Part shown: positions 25,883 to 50,963 of the stretch, in pieces
Numbering within the stretch: position 1 is the stretch's first letter
How the letters are laid out: each line of letters begins with the position of its first letter
Source: Bacilli bacterium
Lineage (GTDB): Bacteria; Bacillota_I; Bacilli_A; RF39; UBA660
Reading direction: 5' to 3'
NCBI GenBank assembly: GCA_036342255.1
Contig: JAZAUS010000008.1
Location: 7,661 to 71,660 of the forward strand
DNA: 64,000 nucleotides
The notes under the pieces: model-generated
Seen by the model: only the letters and a program-made list of their open reading frames with translations
Told to the model about the DNA's origin: nothing
The model's database searches: none
Program-made: the position numbers and the translations under genes

Positions 25883-26932
25883 TTATTCGTATAAATAATC
25901 TACTATTGCCTTTGCAACTTGTTCTGCCAATAGAGGTGGAACAGCGTTTCCAACTTGTTTATATTGATTGACCTTTGATCCACTAAAAATATAATTATCT
26001 GGAAAAGATTGAATTCTAGCTGCTTCTCTTACAGACAAAATTCTATTTTCTTTATAATGAAAATATGTCCTATGACCTGTATCAATTGTATTACTTTGAT
26101 TTTTACTGTTCATTCTTCTTAATAATGAACTATATTTTCTATTACCTCTCAAGTTTTCTGGTAAATCCTTTATACTACCACCCTGAGGTACATGAGAAAT
26201 TAATTTTTTTGTTTCTTCAGTATGAAATGTTTGTTCATGATTATATACCATATCACAATTTTTTCTCATTTTCTTTTGGTATTTTGATATTGCGTCTGTT
26301 TTGTATTTTGAAGGATCATCATTTTTATCTAGTGATGGTAAATCAGATATTGCTTCTTCGCAAGTTACTTTATAATTGAATTTTTTAGGGAATTTAAATG
26401 TTCCTTTATCTAAATTCTCTTTAATTCCAATAAAAAATACCCTTACTCTGTTTTGTGGAACACCATAATCAGAAGCTACTAATTTATCTAGATAAACATT
26501 ATAACCAATTTTTTTAGCTCTTCTAATAATATCCTCTTTTACTTCACCATTTTTCATTGACAAAATACCTGTTACATTTTCAATAACAAAAAAATCAGGA
26601 TTAATTATTGATAATGTTTTAAAATATTCTTTATATAATTTATTTCTTTCATCATCCTCAGATCTTCTACCAGCTAAACTAAAGCCTTGGCAAGGCGGAC
26701 CACCAATTACACCAGAAACATGTTCATTAACATATTGTTTTATGAATTTTTCATCAATTTCAGCAATATCTTTGACAACACCAACTTTATTCTTTCTATT
26801 GTTATTAAAAGTATCTATTGCATTACTCCACATGTCGATAGCAAGAACACTTTCAAAATTTTGTTTTTCAAAGCCTAAGGTTAGACCACCGGCCCCACAA
26901 AACAAATCAATAACCTTTCTTTTACTCTTCAT
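25883..26932 (-). CDS. DNA (cytosine-5)-methyltransferase
   Basis: DLFCGAGG (I), GGPPCQGFS (IV), ENV (VI), QNRVRVFFIG (VIII), GNAVPP (X). Confidence 0.9.
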   Translation of the reverse strand: MKSKRKVIDLFCGAGGLTLGFEKQNFESVLAIDMWSNAIDTFNNNRKNKVGVVKDIAEIDEKFIKQYVNEHVSGVIGGPPCQGFSLAGRRSEDDERNKLYKEYFKTLSIINPDFFVIENVTGILSMKNGEVKEDIIRRAKKIGYNVYLDKLVASDYGVPQNRVRVFFIGIKENLDKGTFKFPKKFNYKVTCEEAISDLPSLDKNDDPSKYKTDAISKYQKKMRKNCDMVYNHEQTFHTEETKKLISHVPQGGSIKDLPENLRGNRKYSSLLRRMNSKNQSNTIDTGHRTYFHYKENRILSVREAARIQSFPDNYIFSGSKVNQYKQVGNAVPPLLAEQVAKAIVDYLYE

Positions 26933-28181
26933 TTTCTAAAACCTCCAATATCATATTAGAAACCGCGTTAGCCATTAACGGAGGCACAGCGTTTCCAACT
27001 TGTCTTAATTGTTCACCCTTATTACCGATAAATATAAATCTGTCTGGAAAGGATTGAATTCTAGCAGATTCTCTTGCGGAAGGAACTCTATTGAAGATAG
27101 GATGAAAATATACAGCATGACCAGTATCAATTGTAGTTGATTGACCTTTTCCGTCTAATCTTCTCATATAGTTTGAATGTCTATTATCTCTTTTCGAAGG
27201 AAATAATTCCTCAGGAACATCTTTCCAATTACCACCTTGTGGTACATAGCTTATTCTCTTTTGAACATCTTCATTAGGATAATTAATACGATGGTTAAAA
27301 ATATAATTAGTTCCATCATGCATCTTTTTTAAATACTCATTTGTAATTGAATCAGATATTGAATATACTTCATTTGTTTCATCTTTTGTGGCATTTTTTT
27401 CAATCTCGTATAAATCACATAATGCTTCATCAACAGTAGTCTTTTTATCAACCTTAAATTTATTAATACCGTTAAAATCAACTTTCCCAATATCATTTCT
27501 TATACCGACAAAAACAGCTCTCATTCTTTTTTGCGGAACACCATAATCAGAGGCATCTAATATTTTATATTGGACATTATATCCCATTTCTTCCATCAAT
27601 TCACAAATTTTCTTACGAGCAAACCCATTTTTATTAGTAAGTATTTGCCTAACATTTTCTATCATTATTGCCTTAGGTCTTAATTCTTTTACAAATCTTA
27701 AAAATTGAAAGAACAATTTGTTTCTTGGATCATCTTCCAATTTTTGATGCCTATTCAATGCAGAAAAGCCTTGACATGGTGGCCCACCTACTATTATATC
27801 TACATCTTTAAATCCAGTATCTTTAACTTCTATTTTTGTAATATCTCCACAAATAACGTTTGCCTGTGGAAAATTATACTTAAATGTTTTACATGCCGCT
27901 TTATCAAAATCAATTGCTCCTACAATTTCCATACGACTATTATGTTTAAAGCCTTCACTAATTCCACCACATCCACTAAACAAATCAATAACTCTATATT
28001 TTTTAAATTCACTTTTGCTATATAAGCCATCATCAATACTTTTTCTTATTTTATCCGAAAGACATTTTCCCTTATACTCTTTATCTATTTTATCTATTAC
28101 TTCAAAAGGTAATTTAATTTTAACTTCCTTACCTTGAATTGATTTTCTTCCGCTTCCTTCTCTTTTACCACCCTTATTCAT
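26922..28181 (-). CDS. DNA (cytosine-5)-methyltransferase with ~60-aa basic N-terminal extension
   Basis: DLFSGCGG, GGPPCQGFS, ENV, QKRMRAVFVG, GNAVPP. N-terminus GGKREGSGRKS. 11-nt overlap with the second MTase. Confidence 0.9.
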   Translation of the reverse strand: MNKGGKREGSGRKSIQGKEVKIKLPFEVIDKIDKEYKGKCLSDKIRKSIDDGLYSKSEFKKYRVIDLFSGCGGISEGFKHNSRMEIVGAIDFDKAACKTFKYNFPQANVICGDITKIEVKDTGFKDVDIIVGGPPCQGFSALNRHQKLEDDPRNKLFFQFLRFVKELRPKAIMIENVRQILTNKNGFARKKICELMEEMGYNVQYKILDASDYGVPQKRMRAVFVGIRNDIGKVDFNGINKFKVDKKTTVDEALCDLYEIEKNATKDETNEVYSISDSITNEYLKKMHDGTNYIFNHRINYPNEDVQKRISYVPQGGNWKDVPEELFPSKRDNRHSNYMRRLDGKGQSTTIDTGHAVYFHPIFNRVPSARESARIQSFPDRFIFIGNKGEQLRQVGNAVPPLMANAVSNMILEVLENEE

Positions 28182-28198
28182 AATGTCACCTCATTATA

Positions 28199-28227
28199 AT
28201 TATATTGAAAACGCAGACTTTTTTCAA
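28199..28227 (-). promoter_or_regulatory. Promoter of the two-methyltransferase operon
   Basis: TTGAAA-17-TATAAT, followed by GAGGTGA SD and the ATG at 28181. Confidence 0.55.
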
Positions 28228-28245
28228 TAGTTTTTTTAAAAAAAT

Positions 28246-28272
28246 GTAAAAAAAATGCATTATATAAATGCA
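28246..28272 (-). terminator. Terminator after the DUF262-HNH gene
   Basis: TGCATT-N5-AATGCA + U8. Confidence 0.6.
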
Positions 28273-28278
28273 CATTTC

Positions 28279-29484
28279 TTAATTATCACTTTTAGATGAA
28301 TTACAACTTGGACATAAAACTTGTCCATTTTCAATTTCTGTTTTTCCACCTTTACTCCATGGAACTATATGATCAGCTTCCCAATCATTCCAGTCACAAT
28401 GTTTTTTACATTGTTGACATATACCTTTATCACGTCTATATATAACTTGTCTTTGTGCTTCATCAAATGATCTTTGTGAATCCTTTAATGGTAATTTTTT
28501 TACTGTAGCTAAAAGTGATTCTTTTAATACCTTATGCCTATAAGTTAACGATTCATATGTATCAGAAGAGTTTGAAATCCATCTTTGATATAAAACTAAT
28601 ACTGGATCTTGTTCTTCTGCTTCTTTCATTCTATCTAATGTTCTATTGTTTTCAAATTCAATAAACCAGTCGTAGATTTCTTTTTCACGCCCCCTAATGT
28701 CATAATTAGGCATTAAATCCATAATTAATAGAAATAATGAAATAACGCTATACCTTTGTAATTCTGGAGCTTTATATTCAAACATTGTATTTAAATAATC
28801 TAATATTCTTCTAATATTTTTTGCTTGTTCGCAATTTTCATCAAAATCTGTATTATTCCAATACATATCATTTAAATCTTTATCTTTAACATTTGTTATT
28901 GTTCCATTTATAGCAAGCAAGCACATTTGAGCGGCAATCAAATCATATGTAAATCTACTATCTTTAAAATTAACCTTATCAAAAAATTGGTGAGAAGAAA
29001 CTGTTTTTACAAAATCTCTCATTTTACTTGGTATAGCATTTCGTTTTTCTTGTGCTTTTAAAGATGTACCATTTTGTAGACGTAAAAACATTTCCCTTAT
29101 TTCTTCATCATTTTTATCCAAAATAACAAAATCCAAATTATATGTATCAATTATATCAGATATTTCTGGTTCTAATTCGCTATATTTCTTATTTTTTATT
29201 TCAATATCGTTAATAGGATCAGCATCTTTAGGTAATGGATATTCATCATCATAGAATGACCAAATGGCACGTATTCTTTGTTGACCATCAACAACATCAT
29301 ACTTATTTTTATCTACTTCGTGCAAATATATTTTTGGAATATCATAATCATGTAATATTGAATCAATCAATAATTGTTTTTGATTTTTAGTCCAGACAGA
29401 TGGTCTTTGATAATCTGGATTTGTATTAATTTGTGTTCTTCTTTTATTTAAAGATAAAAGTGGCCATGTGGTTTTATTTAGCAT
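28279..29484 (-). CDS. DUF262 (ParB-like DGQQR) - HNH fusion nuclease, type IV restriction-like
   Basis: Start reset to MLNKTTW (AGGAGGAATAAT-ATG at 29484). DYQRPSVWT, VDGQQRIRAI. C-terminus ADHIVPWSKGGKTEIENGQVLCPSCNSSKS. Confidence 0.75.
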   Translation of the reverse strand: MLNKTTWPLLSLNKRRTQINTNPDYQRPSVWTKNQKQLLIDSILHDYDIPKIYLHEVDKNKYDVVDGQQRIRAIWSFYDDEYPLPKDADPINDIEIKNKKYSELEPEISDIIDTYNLDFVILDKNDEEIREMFLRLQNGTSLKAQEKRNAIPSKMRDFVKTVSSHQFFDKVNFKDSRFTYDLIAAQMCLLAINGTITNVKDKDLNDMYWNNTDFDENCEQAKNIRRILDYLNTMFEYKAPELQRYSVISLFLLIMDLMPNYDIRGREKEIYDWFIEFENNRTLDRMKEAEEQDPVLVLYQRWISNSSDTYESLTYRHKVLKESLLATVKKLPLKDSQRSFDEAQRQVIYRRDKGICQQCKKHCDWNDWEADHIVPWSKGGKTEIENGQVLCPSCNSSKSDN

Positions 29485-29585
29485 ATTATTCCTCCTTACA
29501 ATTTTAATATTATTATAACACAATAGTTGCTTTTTATTGATAATAAATATTTTGATTTTTCTATTTCTTAATTAGATTTATTCTT

Positions 29586-36716: not shown

Positions 36717-36835
36717 TTTATTCTCCTTTATTAAGAAAATCATTATCATGCAGTCTTTATCTTCAGTTATGTCTAATAATGTAAAGTAATAATTTTTCTT
36801 AAATTAATATATTCTTTTAATTTTTGATATATATA

Positions 36836-36958
36836 TTATTGATCTGCTAAAGCATTTATTATGGCTAATGGGAATAGTAGTATTAGCCATAATATACCTT
36901 TAATAAGATAGTATACTAGATATAATGGTAATAAAGTTATTTTAATTATAGTTTTCAT
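36836..36958 (-). CDS. 40-aa hydrophobic micro-protein (not in ORF track)
   Basis: AAGGAG-N5-ATG directly after the stop of the 67-aa acidic gene. Translation: MKTIIKITLLPLYLVYYLIKGILWLILLFPLAIINALADQ. Confidence 0.45.
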   Translation of the reverse strand: MKTIIKITLLPLYLVYYLIKGILWLILLFPLAIINALADQ

Positions 36959-36969
36959 AGATACTCCTT

Positions 36970-37173
36970 TTATTTATCATCTTCATAGTAATAATCATCA
37001 TCTTCTAGATCTTCTTCTTCAAAGTTAGATGAATTATACTCACCTTTTTTTATTAGTTCTTTTTGATAATCGTCTAGATCATTATTTTCTTGTTCTTCAA
37101 GATATTTGAATAAACCAAAAGCTTTAGATCTTTTGGTTTGGTCATTACTAAATAAATCGTTAAATAATCCCAT
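36970..37173 (-). CDS. Small acidic protein with NFEEEDLEDDDYYYEDDK tail
   Basis: 67 aa with GAAGGAGAAATTT-ATG and TGATATAAT promoter. Paralogous fragment at 30194-30436. Confidence 0.55.
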   Translation of the reverse strand: MGLFNDLFSNDQTKRSKAFGLFKYLEEQENNDLDDYQKELIKKGEYNSSNFEEEDLEDDDYYYEDDK

Positions 37174-37266
37174 AAATTTCTCCTTCTATAGTTATATTAT
37201 ATCATAATAATAAAAAATTTTTAATTTATATATTGACATATGTTTTTAATTTGGTATAATGTTTAT

Positions 37267-37372
37267 AGATAGATTTAATATCTATCTACCGATTTATTAG
37301 TTTATCTAATAAATCAACATTAGTTGGTGCTTTGCACCACACAAAAAAACATCATTTATGTGATGTTTTTTT
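37267..37372 (+). ncRNA. sRNA candidate, family copy 1 (three hairpins + intrinsic terminator)
   Basis: Promoter TTGACA-16-TGGTATAAT (37233-37260). Hairpins TAGATAGAT/ATCTATCTA, GATTTATTAG/CTAATAAATC, GGTGC/GCACC. Terminator ACATCA-N6-TGATGT + U7. Confidence 0.6.
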
Positions 37373-37487
37373 GTTTTGTATTAGTATAATTTAGATTTTT
37401 TCTATTTTAATAGTTACACTTATAAAAATTTTTTAAAAAAATTAATTTTTATATTGACATATATTTTTAATTTGGTATAATGTTTAT

Positions 37488-37593
37488 AGATAGATTTAAT
37501 ATCTATCTACCGATTTATTAGTTTATCTAATAAGTCAACATTAGTTGGTGCTTTGCACCACACAAAAAAACATCATTTATGTGATGTTTTTTT
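37488..37593 (+). ncRNA. sRNA candidate, family copy 2 (tandem duplicate, 221-nt period)
   Basis: Near-identical to copy 1, including the promoter (37454-37481). Its one in-RNA substitution, A to G in the hairpin-2 arm, keeps pairing as G-U. Confidence 0.6.
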
Positions 37594-37631
37594 GTTTTGT
37601 AGTTCTATTTATTTATAATATTTTTGCAATT

Positions 37632-37661
37632 AAAAATCATCATTATATGATGATTATTTTT
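37632..37661. terminator. Bidirectional terminator shared by the 4-TM gene and the convergent sRNA genes
   Basis: AAAA-ATCATCAT-TAT-ATGATGAT-TATTTTT, overlapping the stop of 37654..38265. Confidence 0.6.
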
Positions 37662-38265
37662 CTTTATAAAATGTTGTTAAAAACAAACAAAATCTGTATA
37701 GTATTATTTCACTTTGATTTATGGCGTAGTTTTTAGCAATTGCTTTTCCACCTATTGTTAGGGCTGATACGATAGCGGTTGATAATAGTGATATTATTAA
37801 AAAATTAGTATTTAATGTTTCACTTAAGGCACTTGCTATAGATATACAGCAAGCTCCTGATATTACTCCACATATATCTCCTATTACATCATTTAAGAAA
37901 CTAGCTACTTTATCTGTATTCTTTTTTAATTGTACAGCTAATTTAGATCCTTTTACTTTTCTAGCAGCCATTGAATTAAAAACACTTAGGTTAGAGGCTG
38001 TTACAGCTACTCCTATCATATCAAAAAATATTCCTAAGAAGATAAAGAATAATAATAGGATTATTCCAAAAATAATTGGTATATTTGGTAATAAGGTTTC
38101 TGATGCTAAAGACATTAATAAAGATATTATAAAGGCTATAGCAATTATTTTTATTATCCAATTATAATCTATTAGATTTTTTTTCTTGTTCTTCTCTATT
38201 ATTTTTAAATTTTTTAATTCTTCTTTTTTTATTTGTTTATTATTATTCAATTTGATCCCTCTCAT
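37654..38265 (-). CDS. 4-TM membrane protein immediately downstream of the large ncRNA (OapA-like position, unverified)
   Basis: About 200 aa. Basic N-terminus, four TM helices, repeated D(M/V)IG motifs (FFDMIGVAV, LNDVIGDICGVISG). The ATG at 38265 lacks an SD, so GAGAGGG-N6-TTG at 38250 is the more likely start. Confidence 0.6.
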   Translation of the reverse strand: MRGIKLNNNKQIKKEELKNLKIIEKNKKKNLIDYNWIIKIIAIAFIISLLMSLASETLLPNIPIIFGIILLLFFIFLGIFFDMIGVAVTASNLSVFNSMAARKVKGSKLAVQLKKNTDKVASFLNDVIGDICGVISGACCISIASALSETLNTNFLIISLLSTAIVSALTIGGKAIAKNYAINQSEIILYRFCLFLTTFYKEK

Positions 38266-38268
38266 AAT

Positions 38269-38794
38269 AAAAACTAGATATTATCTAGTTCTTTTTTTAT
38301 TAATGGCTATTTATACAGTAAACTTTGAATCTTAGGTCAAGTAGGATTTCCCTTACCTTTACAAATCGTTACCAATTTGCGGTTCCCCTTTAAAAAGATA
38401 AATATAGTATCACTAACTATATGACTTGATTACCACTTAGAATCCACTGCAATCCCGTACAAATCATTCTAGGAGTTTTCCTCACCACTGTTTATTACTA
38501 GTTCTCTTTTGCAAATATAATTTCAAGATGCACATATATATTGGCCAATTGATATATGTGTATTCATCTATCCCAGTATATTCACTCAAGACAAGCATGT
38601 TATAAAAATATAACTACAAATCAAATATTGGATTTAACACTATATGCCGTTATAGGAGCCCAATATCTTCCCTTTCCAATTCCACCCTAAGCTGGGCGCA
38701 AAAAGCAGATACTAGAAAGCATTTATGCTCGTTAGTGGATTTTTAGCCCCACCTTCGTAATAAAGGGAATGACTAGAATAATGTGCCATTAACT
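38269..38794 (-). ncRNA. Large structured ncRNA candidate (~525 nt); OLE-like synteny, family unverified
   Basis: Consensus promoter 38801-38829 and terminal hairpin CTAGATAATATCTAG+U5 (38269-38291). No ORF >=60 aa in any frame. G/C-rich runs and many local helices. RNase P, tmRNA and SRP signatures absent. Confidence 0.6.
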
Positions 38795-38800
38795 GGTGTA

Positions 38801-38829
38801 ATTATAGCATAAATATAGGATTTTGTCAA
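38801..38829 (-). promoter_or_regulatory. Promoter of the large ncRNA
   Basis: TTGACA-17-(TGC)TATAAT, perfect -35/-10 with an extended -10. Confidence 0.7.
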
Positions 38830-38885
38830 GAACTTGTTAACTTTTTGTAAATGTATTAACATAATATGTTTTAAGAATAATAATA

Positions 38886-39116
38886 CTATTTTTTATTTAA
38901 AGACTCTATCTTTTGTAATTCAAAGCGATATTTTTGACCATTTTTGTTTACTTCTTCTAAAAACATATTAATGGGTCTAGCATATAGTAATCCATCTCCG
39001 TATAAGGCTCTATATATAACTAATTCTTCGTCTGTTTCACTATGATAGGCTATGTCTTCTACAAGATATAAATCTCCTTTGAAGTGCTTATATATTCCTT
39101 TAATTTTTAATTTCAT
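38886..39116 (-). CDS. DUF1653 family protein
   Basis: [45 protein letters not shown] matches the DUF1653 pattern. Confidence 0.7.
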
Positions 39117-41144: not shown

Positions 41145-42020
41145 TTATTTTTTTGTTTTACAAGGATTGACGTGGATTACTACTAAGTATATTTCATCTA
41201 TTTCTTTTATTATTTCTTCTTCTAGATTATTTGCTATGTCATGACTGTCAAATGTAGATAGATTTCCGTCAACAAAGATACTAAATGATACTTGATAGCG
41301 ATAACCTATAGGGGTGGAATTAAAATGTATTACTTTTTTTACTTCATCATGTTTTTCTATAATTGACATTACTTTATTTTTGGTCTCTATAGAAATACTT
41401 TTATCCATTAATATATCATAGCTTTCTTTAAAGATGGTATATGCTGTTATGAAGATCCATGTAGATATTATTATTCCAACTACGCTATCAACTAAGAAAA
41501 TATTATATCTACTTAGGATGGCTGCTGATAAGTTTAGTGATGTTATAAAAGTATCATTTAGATGATCTTTAGAATTAGCTTTCATTAGTAAATTATTATA
41601 TTTTTTGGATATGGTATTGGTATATAAATAAAGTAATAATTTTACTATAATAGTTGTTAGGCAGACTATTAATAGGTAATTGGAATAATGATAATTATTT
41701 CTTTTGAATACTGATATTATTGATGATTTTAGGGATTTATAGGCTAGTATAAACATTACTATACTTATTAATAATGAATATATATATTCGGCTTTTCCGT
41801 GACCTAAGTTATGATCTTCATCAATTGGTTGACTTGCTATTTTATTGCCTATATATGTCATAATAGATGATAAGATATCGCTAGCTGAATTGAATGTATC
41901 AGCTAGCATAGCTTGGCTGTTGGTTATAATACTTATACTTCCTTTTATTATTAATAGAAAGATGTTACCTAGCATTCCTATTATACTGGCTATTTTTACA
42001 TCTTTATATCTTTGCTTCAT
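41145..42020 (-). CDS. Cation diffusion facilitator (CDF) family transporter
   Basis: Six TM helices. SQAMLADTFNSASD and DHLNDTF motifs. C-terminal cytoplasmic domain. Confidence 0.75.
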   Translation of the reverse strand: MKQRYKDVKIASIIGMLGNIFLLIIKGSISIITNSQAMLADTFNSASDILSSIMTYIGNKIASQPIDEDHNLGHGKAEYIYSLLISIVMFILAYKSLKSSIISVFKRNNYHYSNYLLIVCLTTIIVKLLLYLYTNTISKKYNNLLMKANSKDHLNDTFITSLNLSAAILSRYNIFLVDSVVGIIISTWIFITAYTIFKESYDILMDKSISIETKNKVMSIIEKHDEVKKVIHFNSTPIGYRYQVSFSIFVDGNLSTFDSHDIANNLEEEIIKEIDEIYLVVIHVNPCKTKK

Positions 42021-48144: not shown

Positions 48145-48735
48145 TTGAAGAAGAAAATATTGGATATGTGTATAAATATTATTTCTAAAAATAATAATTA
48201 TTCTAAAGATAAGTTGGAAGCTATTAGATATGGTCTTGAAGCGATATATTTAACTGTTACTAAAATGTTTGTTATTATCTGTATTGCTTTAACTCTTGGT
48301 ATGGTTAAAGAAGTTTTCTTACTACTTATTACTTATAATATTATTAGATCACAAGCTTTTGGTTTGCATGCTAGTAAAAGTATTTATTGTTTGATATCTT
48401 CTTTAATATCATTTATAGGAGGAGCATTTATTTGTAAATATATTATTATTCCAAAAATAGTTATGATTGTTTTGGCTATAGGGTGTAATGTTGGGTTATT
48501 ATTATATGCTCCTGCTGATACTTATAAGAGACCTCTGATAAATGATAAGAAGAGGAAAAGATTTAAATTTATTAGCTTTGTATTAGGTATAATATATTCT
48601 TTAATTATATTATTTAGCAATAGTAAAATTACTAATTATCTTTTAATAGGTATGATATTGGCTGTTATTATGATTTTGCCTATTACTTATAAGATTTTTA
48701 AATTACCTTATAATAATTTTAAGAATTATAAATAA
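48145..48735 (+). CDS. agrB: AgrB, accessory gene regulator protein B (AgrD-processing membrane peptidase)
   Basis: IRSQAFGLHASKSIYCLISS (catalytic His/Cys context) and YAPADTYKRPL. TTG start after AGGTGA. Confidence 0.85.
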   Translation: MKKKILDMCINIISKNNNYSKDKLEAIRYGLEAIYLTVTKMFVIICIALTLGMVKEVFLLLITYNIIRSQAFGLHASKSIYCLISSLISFIGGAFICKYIIIPKIVMIVLAIGCNVGLLLYAPADTYKRPLINDKKRKRFKFISFVLGIIYSLIILFSNSKITNYLLIGMILAVIMILPITYKIFKLPYNNFKNYK

Positions 48736-48796
48736 TGTGTTTAATTAGTGAATGCTAATTTAACAATAAAAAGAATATGTAAAGGAGGTTGTTATA

Positions 48797-48919
48797 ATGA
48801 AATTTATTGCTGATATTTTGGCTGCTATTGGTAATGGGGCAGCAACTGTTGGTACACAAGGTTGTTATATTTGGTTTATCGATGAACCAGAGATGCCAAA
48901 ATCTTTACTTGATAAGTAA
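48797..48919 (+). CDS. agrD: AgrD autoinducing-peptide precursor (not in ORF track)
   Basis: AAAGGAGG-N8-ATG. MKFIADILAAIGNGAATVGTQGCYIWFIDEPEMPKSLLDK has an amphipathic leader, a Cys + 4 ring (CYIWF) and a DEPExPKxLL recognition tail. Confidence 0.8.
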   Translation: MKFIADILAAIGNGAATVGTQGCYIWFIDEPEMPKSLLDK

Positions 48920-48920
48920 T

Positions 48921-48953
48921 AAAGAAGTCTATTTTTTAGAAATAGACTTCTTT
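48921..48953. terminator. Bidirectional terminator shared by agrD and the convergent kinase gene
   Basis: 14-bp stem AAAGAAGTCTATTT/AAATAGACTTCTTT. One arm encodes the last codons of the kinase. Confidence 0.7.
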
Positions 48954-50248
48954 ATTGTTAGTGTTTGAATGTATAATTTTTTTGTTATTTTAGTTTCTAA
49001 TATAAAAATATTATTCTTATTAATTAGATGATTGACTAATAATAGGCCATGTCCTCTATTAATATCTTTGGTTGAATACTTTTCTATGCCAATTCTTTCG
49101 AAATCTATTTTTTGATTATGGGAATTGGAAATAATAAATATACAATCTTTTTTAGTGTTTAAGTATACTTCTATGCTAAATTGGTGTTCTTTTGTTTCTA
49201 ATGCTCCTTCGATAGCATTATCTAATAGAACACCAAGTATTTTACCTAGATCACGATTTTGTTTTGTATTTAATTTATAAATAATTGAGTTTTCTACTCT
49301 GGTTGATATGTTTATAGCTGTTTTTAATCCTTTATTCTCTGCTTCTTGTGTTTTAAAGTAACATAATCCTTTGATACCATTAGCAGGTAGATAGCCAAAT
49401 TTGGCGTATATTTCATTTTTAAATTCATGTTTTTCATTTAGTATTTCATCAATGTATTTAATAATATCTTTTTCTTTTTGTTTATCTATAATTTTACTTT
49501 TTATAGATAGAAATTCATTTTTTGTTTCATGTCTTAATACTCTTATTTTTTCAATTTCTTTTTCATAACTAGTCATAAATTCTAATAATTTATCATATTT
49601 ATTAATTATCTTTTTATTCTCAATAGTTTGTTTTATGAGACTAAATAATACTATTAATAATACTATAATAGCTATTATATATATAAAAATATTTTGACCA
49701 AATTTGAATTCTTTTATTATAGTGTGAAAGAACATTCCAACACATATAAAGATTATTATAGAATAAATAATTATTTTTATATTATTATCTATTTGGGTAT
49801 TTATTAGTTTTTTTAGTGGTTTTCTTAATAAATATGTTATTATTAGAAATAAAATACATATAGATATGTTACCAATAATACTACCAGCGAAGCTATTATA
49901 GCATTCTTCTATGCTTAACTTTAAGATTTTGGTTACAAAAAACAATTCTAATAAGTCAGGAATTATTAGAATTATTAAGTATAAAAATGTTAGAAATATG
50001 GCTTTTTTTGTACTTATATTAAATGTATATTTATAAAATAACATGTTTATGATTGAGACTAAAACTGTTTTTAGGGTTCCATCTAAATAAGTATAAATTA
50101 TTGTATGAATAATGCATATTAAGAAAAGTATAAATAATATTTTATTTTTATTATTTTGATTTGATTCGGCAAGTATGATTTTTCCAAAAAAATATACACC
50201 TATAGTCATAATAACTATTCCTATATAGGTGCTAATAATTTGCCACAT
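48929..50248 (-). CDS. AgrC-like membrane histidine kinase (HATPase_c_5 type)
   Basis: Six or seven N-terminal TM helices. LRHETKNEF (H-box), LLDNAIEGA, NRGHGLLLV. Confidence 0.8.
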   Translation of the reverse strand: MWQIISTYIGIVIMTIGVYFFGKIILAESNQNNKNKILFILFLICIIHTIIYTYLDGTLKTVLVSIINMLFYKYTFNISTKKAIFLTFLYLIILIIPDLLELFFVTKILKLSIEECYNSFAGSIIGNISICILFLIITYLLRKPLKKLINTQIDNNIKIIIYSIIIFICVGMFFHTIIKEFKFGQNIFIYIIAIIVLLIVLFSLIKQTIENKKIINKYDKLLEFMTSYEKEIEKIRVLRHETKNEFLSIKSKIIDKQKEKDIIKYIDEILNEKHEFKNEIYAKFGYLPANGIKGLCYFKTQEAENKGLKTAINISTRVENSIIYKLNTKQNRDLGKILGVLLDNAIEGALETKEHQFSIEVYLNTKKDCIFIISNSHNQKIDFERIGIEKYSTKDINRGHGLLLVNHLINKNNIFILETKITKKLYIQTLTIKKSISKK

Positions 50249-50963
50249 ATTCTTTTAATCCTTTCTTATTTCTTGTTGATATTAAATATATGGTTTGATT
50301 GTTAAGAAAAGTTATTGTTCCTTCTGGATAATTAATTCTTTTTATTTTTTCTATATTTACAAGGCAAGATTTGTGAGATTGATAGAAACTAGGTCCTAAT
50401 TTGGTTTTGAGCTTAGATATGGTTGATAATATTTCATATTTACTTTTATCTTCCATATAGATGATACACTTTTGATTATCTGGAACTTTTTCAATATATA
50501 GGATACTGTTTATTGGTAATCTATATGAATTACGATTATAGTCGAATGATAAAACTCTTCTATTACTAATATTTTTGACAGCGTATTTTATTGTTTTTTC
50601 TAATCTATCTTGCCATAATTTATTTTTATTAATATAATCAATAGCTAGTAATCTGGAATAAAAAATATCATTTTGACATTCTGGATGAGCAGTTACAAAT
50701 ATTATTACGCTTTCTAGATCAGTTTCTCTTATATTAGAAGCTATTTCCAATCCAGATATTTCTGGTAATTCTATATCTAGTATATATATTTTTTGTTCTT
50801 GCTCTTGAGCTATAATTCTTTCTATTTCTTTATCGTATTTTTGGAATTTATTTATCTTATATTCAAAATTATAGGGCATCATTATTTTATTGATAATAAT
50901 TGCTATTTTTTCATTGCAATCTTTATTGTCTTCACAAATGATAAACCTCAACATTATTGTCAT
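50232..50963 (-). CDS. LytTR-family response regulator (AgrA-like)
   Basis: Receiver domain (FIICEDN, ILDIELPEISGLE) + LytTR (FYQSHKSCLVNIEKIKRI). Overlaps the kinase gene. Confidence 0.85.
   Translation of the reverse strand: MTIMLRFIICEDNKDCNEKIAIIINKIMMPYNFEYKINKFQKYDKEIERIIAQEQEQKIYILDIELPEISGLEIASNIRETDLESVIIFVTAHPECQNDIFYSRLLAIDYINKNKLWQDRLEKTIKYAVKNISNRRVLSFDYNRNSYRLPINSILYIEKVPDNQKCIIYMEDKSKYEILSTISKLKTKLGPSFYQSHKSCLVNIEKIKRINYPEGTITFLNNQTIYLISTRNKKGLKEYVANY

Follow-up and report, generated by a model that had tools for sequence, protein, structure and literature searches.

Full-length OLE (ornate, large, extremophilic) RNAs, such as those of Halalkalibacterium (Bacillus) halodurans and Clostridium acetobutylicum, carry the blocks P1 and P3, the P4, P5.1, P6.1, and P9 loops, and a 3' domain with a GNRA loop, have a promoter immediately upstream with its start near P1, and are followed immediately on the same strand by the gene oapA. 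Their hosts belong to Bacillota and are typically anaerobes or extremophiles. In B. halodurans, such a proximal promoter drives OLE RNA at a high level, the 5' ends falling where P1 starts (Wallace et al., PMC3413148), and the RNA is abundant, stable, and discrete and binds OapA at the membrane (PMC3413148, PMC12265935). Cryo-electron microscopy (cryo-EM) structures show the A-rich loop of P4 as a dimer contact and a kissing pair between the P5.1 and P6.1 loops, and the same work describes the P9 loop as symmetrical, places an OapB site in the 3' domain, and does not count P7 and P8 among the dimer contacts (Lyon and Breaker, PMC12265935). Here, we describe a locus with the same blocks and the same layout on the minus strand of a 64,000-nucleotide stretch (the window) of contig JAZAUS010000008.1 from a Bacilli bacterium (assembly GCA_036342255.1), where an OLE RNA of short form is followed by the gene for a 198-amino-acid membrane protein.

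Scanning the full 64-kb window with all 4227 Rfam families, we found OLE (RF01071) as the sole match. The match runs untruncated from 38805 to 38287 on the minus strand and spans model positions 1-616, its 271.5 bits (E 6.5e-76) comparing with a gathering score of 50; oapA starts at 38250 on the same strand. Since the OLE match is full length and no other Rfam family was found in the window, the class of the RNA is settled, and the gene-free stretch almost certainly encodes an OLE RNA of short form followed by oapA, a known RNA and not a new class.

A preliminary description of this DNA, made from the sequence alone, had put forward the ole-oapA layout as its leading idea, and both the OLE match and the OapA hallmarks of the protein downstream bear it out. 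The same match excludes the ROOL-like or new class that it had kept in reserve, and likewise RNase P, tmRNA, and SRP RNA, whose motifs it had looked for by eye without success. It had also held that a clean match to an Rfam family would make the RNA known rather than novel, and this is what the scan returned. The observation from which it started is accurate: the 620 nt at 38266-38885 contain no open reading frame (ORF) of at least 60 aa, the longest overlapping ones having 49, 45, 44, and 38 aa, and G+C content is 31-34% against 18-26% for most flanking windows, with oapA peaking at 30%. Within this richer stretch, the RNA itself is still AT-rich (G+C 33%). The surrounding region is only roughly as tightly packed as was claimed, since 36750-37650 is likewise gene-poor. 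The features of the locus, in the direction of transcription, are as follows.

38801-38829, minus strand: sigma-70-type promoter with -35 TTGACA (38829-38824), a 17-nt spacer, and extended -10 TGCTATAAT (38809-38801), a 12/12 match with TG.
38269-38794, minus strand: predicted OLE transcript of about 526 nt between a putative start site and a putative 3' end at the last U of the U-run (Rfam match, 38805-38287).
38299-38793, minus strand: P1, our own assignment by direct reading, GUUAAUGGC (38793-38785) with GCCAUUAAU (38307-38299), closing the whole RNA; helix 1 of the consensus, 7/9 pairs changed on both sides, 79% of cells paired.
38465-38780, minus strand: P3, also our own assignment, named from the description in PMC12265935, UAUUCUAG (38780-38773) with CUAGAAUG (38472-38465), enclosing the 5' domain (P4-P9); helix 2, 98.8% paired, mostly invariant.
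38734-38753, minus strand: P4 hairpin GGUGGG-GCUAAAAA-UCCACU with the conserved A-rich loop, from the Rfam alignment; helix 3, 100% paired, 4/5 pairs compensatory.
38673-38718, minus strand: P5/P5.1 hairpin with the invariant GCCCA loop (38697-38693); helix 5, 97% paired, 9/15 pairs compensatory.
38622-38668, minus strand: P6/P6.1 hairpin with the invariant GGCAU loop (38648-38644), from the alignments; helices 6-8.
38599-38614, minus strand: mini-hairpin GUUAUA-UUUU-UAUAAC, a remnant at the place of P7/P8, from the alignment of the short clade with longer relatives.
38505-38591, minus strand: P9, a long stem capped by the palindromic loop UUGGCCAA (GGCC 38546-38543), with the distal stem CACAUAUAU/AUAUAUGUG (38560-38552/38539-38531), from the Rfam alignment; helices 9-10.
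38309-38464, minus strand: 3' domain with closing helix AUUUGUACGG (38464-38455) and CUGUAUAAAU (38318-38309); helices 12-21, 92-100% paired, 10/10 pairs of the closing helix compensatory.
38361-38380, minus strand: hairpin GCA..UUG-GUAA-CGA..UGU with a GNRA loop (GUAA 38372-38369) in the 3' domain, at the position of the published OapB site.
38269-38293, minus strand: terminator-like hairpin AAGAACUAGAU-AAU-AUCUAGUUUUU, core stem 38288-38274 and U5 38273-38269, between the OLE 3' end and the ribosome-binding site (RBS) of oapA.
38248-38263, minus strand: oapA translation start by direct reading, with the Shine-Dalgarno (SD) sequence GAGAGGG (38263-38257), a 6-nt spacer, and TTG (38250-38248).
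37654-38250, minus strand: oapA, encoding the 198-aa membrane protein, from the ORF, homologue lengths, AlphaFold2, hydropathy, and Foldseek.
37632-37654, minus strand: terminator-like hairpin after oapA by direct reading, AUCAUCAU-AUA-AUGAUGAU and then a U-run.

The RNA keeps the elements that published work ties to function, namely, P3, the A-rich P4 loop, the P5.1 and P6.1 loops, the GGCC loop of P9, and the GNRA loop of the 3' domain. In the alignments, all the signature OLE loops are found in the window (CUAAAAAU, GCCCA, GGCAU, and UUGGCCAA), and the GGC of the P6.1 loop is complementary to the GCC of the P5.1 loop. The G/C runs that make the stretch stand out fall, by alignment position, in P4 stem and loop (GGUGGGGC), the GCCCA loop (GCGCCCAGC), P6 (GGGCUCC), and the 3' domain (GGGGAACCGC). 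Among the local helices picked out from the raw sequence, CACATATAT/ATATATGTG forms the tip of P9 around its GGCC loop, and ATATAGT/ACTATAT belongs to the 3' domain, where it covaries as a helix. The third, GATTGC/GTAATC, was rejected, as it occurs in neither the Rfam nor the RNAalifold consensus structure; its arms are nearly invariant, so that its pairing is not assessable by covariation.

For covariation, 40 OLE sequences were aligned with MAFFT and folded with RNAalifold, and P1 was added by hand. The RNAalifold consensus holds 112 pairs, 76 of them with compensatory changes. With P1 included, there are 121 pairs, of which 83 have changed on both sides, and 95.2% of cells are paired compared with 81.3% in shuffled alignments; none of 500 shuffles reaches any of the covariation measures, and slid partners are paired in at most 45% of cells. 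The window sequence forms 120 of the 121 consensus pairs.

The window RNA departs from full-length OLE in one main respect. It is about 100 nt shorter than a typical OLE RNA, with about 24 nt and a 5- to 6-bp hairpin in the place of P7-P8, and a few nucleotides are also missing between P4a and P5. In the Rfam alignment, 80 model positions are replaced by 22 nt. Almost all of the length difference falls between P6 and the 3' strand of what we take as helix P4a. This segment is 24 nt in the window and 21-26 nt across the window and its close relatives; it measures 68-123 nt in all but one of 31 longer RNAs, the exception being L068 with 42 nt. Because of the order of elements between P6 and P9, the missing ones are P7 and P8. 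The region of P9 is 57 nt long in the window and 59-66 nt in the longer relatives except L028.

The window RNA belongs to a short clade of nine loci, the others being L082, L085, L088, L086, L087, L089, L090, and L002, whose OapA proteins are 64-83% identical to that of the window. The OLE RNAs of this clade are 517-533 nt long and score 270-287 bits, compared with 553-667 nt and 308-462 bits in the other scanned loci, and mean column identity over the nine RNA sequences is 90%. The residual hairpin at 38614-38599 keeps its pairing through two-sided changes within the clade: a U-A pair has become C-G in L086 and L087, and the second pair has changed from U-A to C-G in L089, L090, and L002. The nearest relative, L082, has an OapA 83% identical to that of the window and the same gene order (PAP2, HtrA, CDF, hypothetical, transglutaminase-like, OLE, and oapA). 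Its label is "MAG: Bacilli bacterium" and its source a ruminant gut sample, both of which fit the order RF39 without proving it.

Two shortened OLE forms are distinguished by Fernando and Breaker (2024; PMC11332333). Variant 1 has shortened P7, P8, and P9 and often lacks the OapB site at the end of P13, and variant 2 lacks P7 and P8, keeps the other conserved nucleotides, scores 235-310 bits, and is common in the uncultured gut order RF39. Hosts of variant 2 are reported mostly to lack OapB and OapC, the latter a protein of the L7Ae family, and OLE is reported to be anticorrelated with MpfA. Going by this description, the window RNA fits variant 2: it shows the same loss of P7 and P8, the other conserved nucleotides are kept, and its score falls within the published band, though that band was obtained with another covariance model and a hairpin of 5-6 bp is left here. 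Variant 1 is ruled out by a P9 length near that of the longer relatives and by the GNRA hairpin at the position of P13, where the OapB site has been published. The full-length type of about 600 nt with P7 and P8 does not apply either, as the 24-nt segment stands in their place.

The protein encoded downstream is OapA, to judge from its sequence hallmarks and its linkage to OLE, and it is predicted to bind the RNA. Published OapA has four transmembrane (TM) helices, a DxxxD motif, and a CNNM-like fold with 7M1U as top structural match (PMC11332333), and its cytoplasmic face is basic (PMC12265935). OapA binds OLE RNA, which needs it to localize to the membrane. According to these papers, no public OapA model existed, and none is curated in Pfam or NCBIfam. 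The window protein shares the length of about 200 aa, the four TM helices, DxxxD, the basic N terminus and central loop, the CNNM-like fold without CBS or CorC domains, and the gene position directly after ole. Its AlphaFold2 model (pLDDT 82.8, pTM 0.72) has helices at about 29-56, 59-85, 112-146, and 150-178, in agreement with four hydrophobic peaks in the hydropathy profile; Lys and Arg are abundant in the N terminus and in the loop at 85-120, and DVIGD lies at residues 121-125, with D121 and D125 invariant in 28 homologues. When the model was compared by Foldseek, as had been suggested for the four-TM protein, the top five matches were all CNNM/CorB/CorC membrane domains (probability 0.95-1.00, TM-score about 0.5), with 7M1U and 7M1T leading. 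The best sequence matches in the PDB are CorB 7M1U and 7M1T.

The membrane domain of MpfA/CorB/CorC (7M1T, 7M1U, and 7CFF) is the only good structural match and a weak sequence match, whereas the window protein has no CBS or CorC domain, ending after the membrane domain, has four instead of three TM helices, has DxxxD, and stays below the Pfam cut-off (CNNM, PF01595, 25.0 bits against 28.4). By the Pfam criterion, it is therefore not a member of the CNNM/MpfA family, and no NCBIfam model matches the 198-aa protein. OapA is reported to lack a proline that is highly conserved in CNNM domains (PMC11332333); here, CorB GEIGPK aligns with GGKAIAK, the proline, which may be the one in question, facing an alanine in a weak alignment (E 0.28) that agrees with the published trait without proving it.

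The start codon of oapA deserves a comment, as an ORF from an upstream ATG spans 37654-38265. The preliminary description had preferred TTG at 38250, with GAGAGGG 6 nt before it, and the homologues support that choice. More than 4500 were found, and because the close ones are 192-199 aa long, we take TTG 38250 as the start; the aligned start is ATG in L088, L086, L087, L089, L090, and L002, and L082 and L085 lack the upstream ATG.

The link between OLE and this protein holds across loci. We fetched 89 loci encoding homologues of the 198-aa protein, scanned 52 loci with Rfam, and examined 44 for promoter and hairpin. Of the 52 scanned loci, 43 have OLE immediately before the gene, and nhmmer with an OLE profile matched 81 of 90 loci, 3 of the 9 misses being cut by the contig end. 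A scan of reference genomes by exact peptide words with one query gave one relative, a Vallitaleaceae genome with OLE at 462 bits. Six OapA homologues with DVIGD (L010, L032, L040, L055, L062, and L066) have no OLE in the fetched flanks by nhmmer, and none by Rfam at E 0.001 in the five that were scanned, L040 being the sixth. In all six, a protein-coding gene stands next to oapA on the upstream side. Either these genomes carry ole at another place or OapA can do without OLE.

Turning to expression, a TTGACA/TG-n-TATAAT-like promoter is found at the equivalent place in most of the 44 OLE loci, and the perfect minus-strand promoter reported earlier at 38801-38829 is as it was described. Transcription would start near A38794, where P1 begins. 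Such a promoter close to ole is already known, having been shown in B. halodurans. Directly upstream of it in the window, with no terminator seen between, lies a DUF1653 gene of 76 aa (86 bits, 38886-39116, minus strand), found at the same place in L085 and L088.

The hairpin and U5 between the RNA and the membrane-protein gene are likewise real. Its core letters are CTAGAT-AAT-ATCTAG, and pairing of the A and U runs on either side extends the stem to 11 bp, with a folding energy of -9.5 kcal/mol (z = -4.1) that none of 200 shuffles matched; a simple terminator scan missed it solely because its stem has fewer than three G-C pairs. The stem ACUAGA/UCUAG with U5 is identical in all nine short-clade loci, and the loop varies; in other clades the stems at this site differ, e.g., AGUAG/CUACU or GGAGC/GCUCC. 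A scripted search found a hairpin with U-run here in 30 of the 44 loci, of which 3 were discounted as weak or spurious, leaving about 27. About 14 of the 44 have no hairpin, and oapA follows ole directly there. We found no discussion of a terminator between ole and oapA in the OLE literature searched. The element looks like a leaky terminator ahead of oapA that would yield a discrete RNA and let a fraction of transcripts through.

From the U-run to the oapA start there are only about 18 nt, the RBS beginning 5 nt past the U-run, and no conserved promoter was found between the two in the window and the loci of its relatives. The sole candidate for an internal oapA promoter, a 9/12 match at 38309-38280, was rejected, as its -10 lies in the hairpin loop, which differs in relatives. 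From the short gap and the lack of a conserved promoter, we infer that oapA depends on read-through, so the earlier claim to this effect is reasonable, with the read-through itself at the level of prediction.

The hairpin core CUAGA/UCUAG repeats the letters of the invariant P3 core, UCUAG/CUAGA (38773-38777 and 38468-38472). Sharing of a 5-nt core may well be chance. Given this shared core and a stem unchanged in nine short-clade members while the loop varies, one can imagine the hairpin as a regulated switch, in which OLE folding or OapA binding competes with it and tunes the amount of oapA mRNA per OLE RNA, an idea that we regard as very unlikely.

Taken together, a strong housekeeping-type promoter would start transcription at about 38794, at P1, and produce an OLE RNA of about 526 nt without P7 and P8. 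By analogy with the published structures, this RNA would dimerize through its P4, P5.1/P6.1, and P9 loops, none of which is missing, and OapA, a four-helix relative of the membrane domain of CNNM/CorB Mg2+ transporters, would hold it at the membrane. The particle might then support the cell under stresses such as excess Mg2+, alcohols, cold, or poor carbon sources, perhaps by modulating CNNM-like cation transport through OapA. The A-tract, hairpin, and U-tract at 38293-38269 would stop most transcripts, and a fraction would read on as oapA mRNA.

Several points weigh against this interpretation. The Rfam score is the lowest of the set save for close relatives, and about 75 nt found in most OLE RNAs are missing from the short clade. 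The hairpin is weak, with two G-C pairs in its core, and fails a simple terminator rule. The ends and abundance of the transcript, the efficiency of termination, and the read-through are predictions, and the mechanism is borrowed from H. halodurans genetics and Clostridium cryo-EM. The low score and length (270-287 bits and 517-533 nt, for the window and its close relatives) together with the loss of P7-P8 could be read as signs of a decaying OLE remnant, a pseudogene. We hold this to be extremely improbable: the RNA has kept 90% column identity in nine lineages though their OapA proteins have diverged to 64-83% identity, all but one of the 121 consensus pairs are formed by the window, the mini-hairpin and P9 maintain their pairing by compensatory changes within the clade, and promoter, hairpin, and intact oapA are all conserved. 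Moreover, OLE RNAs without P7/P8 are treated as natural variants in the literature (PMC11332333), and P7 and P8 are not dimer contacts (PMC12265935).

The RNA might also be mainly a giant cis-acting 5' leader of oapA, a riboswitch or attenuator, and not a trans-acting RNA. With a terminator-like hairpin set directly between the RNA and the oapA RBS and no room for a promoter, oapA is probably co-transcribed with the RNA, and this much of the giant-leader idea in the preliminary description stands. A leader role is not needed to explain the RNA, however, which is a full-length member of the OLE family; in B. halodurans, OLE is an abundant, stable, and discrete RNA bound to OapA at the membrane (PMC3413148, PMC12265935), and with about 14 of 44 loci lacking the hairpin, attenuation is not family-wide. 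We therefore consider a mainly cis-acting leader highly improbable. For a new class, be it ROOL-, GOLLD-, or raiA-like or of no known kind, or for RNase P, tmRNA, or SRP RNA, we found no point in favor, and with OLE as the only match among 4227 Rfam families, these are refuted with next to no chance left to them. An OLE RNA of short form with its oapA gene thus stays by far the best account of the locus.

The gene neighborhood adds several observations. In the window, the neighbors of ole include DUF1653, transglutaminase-like, CDF cation-efflux, and HtrA genes, whereas published loci tend to cluster with isoprenoid, DNA-repair, and translation genes. The CDF cation-efflux gene recurs at 41145-42020 (minus strand) in the window, 735-1634 in L085, 962-1840 in L086, and 964-1839 in L087. 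It is the immediate upstream coding neighbor of ole in L086 and L087, one gene away in L085, with DUF1653 between, and three genes off in both L082 and the window. The repeated presence of this metal-ion transport gene near ole is in line with the metal homeostasis genes that published work associates with ole. Downstream of oapA, T-box leaders stand before aminoacyl-tRNA synthetase genes at 7284-7497 in L082 (above the Rfam threshold) and 3909-4089 in L088 (below it); with no T-box match in the window, the gene order downstream of oapA differs from that of these two loci.

Convergent with oapA, a tandem duplication of a 188-nt unit occupies 37200-37608 on the plus strand (37200-37387 and 37421-37608), the two copies being 92% identical. 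Both have a perfect TTGACA-16-TATAAT promoter with TG (37233-37260 and 37454-37481), followed by about 115 nt with three hairpins and by a 15-bp terminator hairpin with U-run (37341-37374 and 37562-37595), and the folding energy of the unit is -41.6 kcal/mol. Homologues of the unit are found immediately past oapA, on the other strand from that gene, in L082 (at 89% identity and with additional partial copies), L085, and L084. The unit has no credible Rfam match (best E 0.64-0.72) and looks like a duplicated small-RNA gene. Farther away, the window carries an agr-like quorum-sensing set at 48145-50963, with AgrB on the plus strand, a GHKL histidine kinase, and a LytTR response regulator, and a GmrSD/HNH nuclease next to a C5 cytosine methylase at 26922-29523.

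OLE RNA, oapA, the proximal promoter, and the form without P7/P8 have all been published before, and any Rfam-based annotation would label this locus, the layout of which had been recognized correctly from the raw sequence in the preliminary description. The hairpin that recurs between ole and oapA in about 27 of 44 loci is among the points of modest value. The locus is also compact and self-contained, with a promoter, a 526-nt RNA, a hairpin, and oapA, and as a natural minimal form of OLE that is 90% conserved in its clade, it could, for structural or functional work, guide the choice of constructs.

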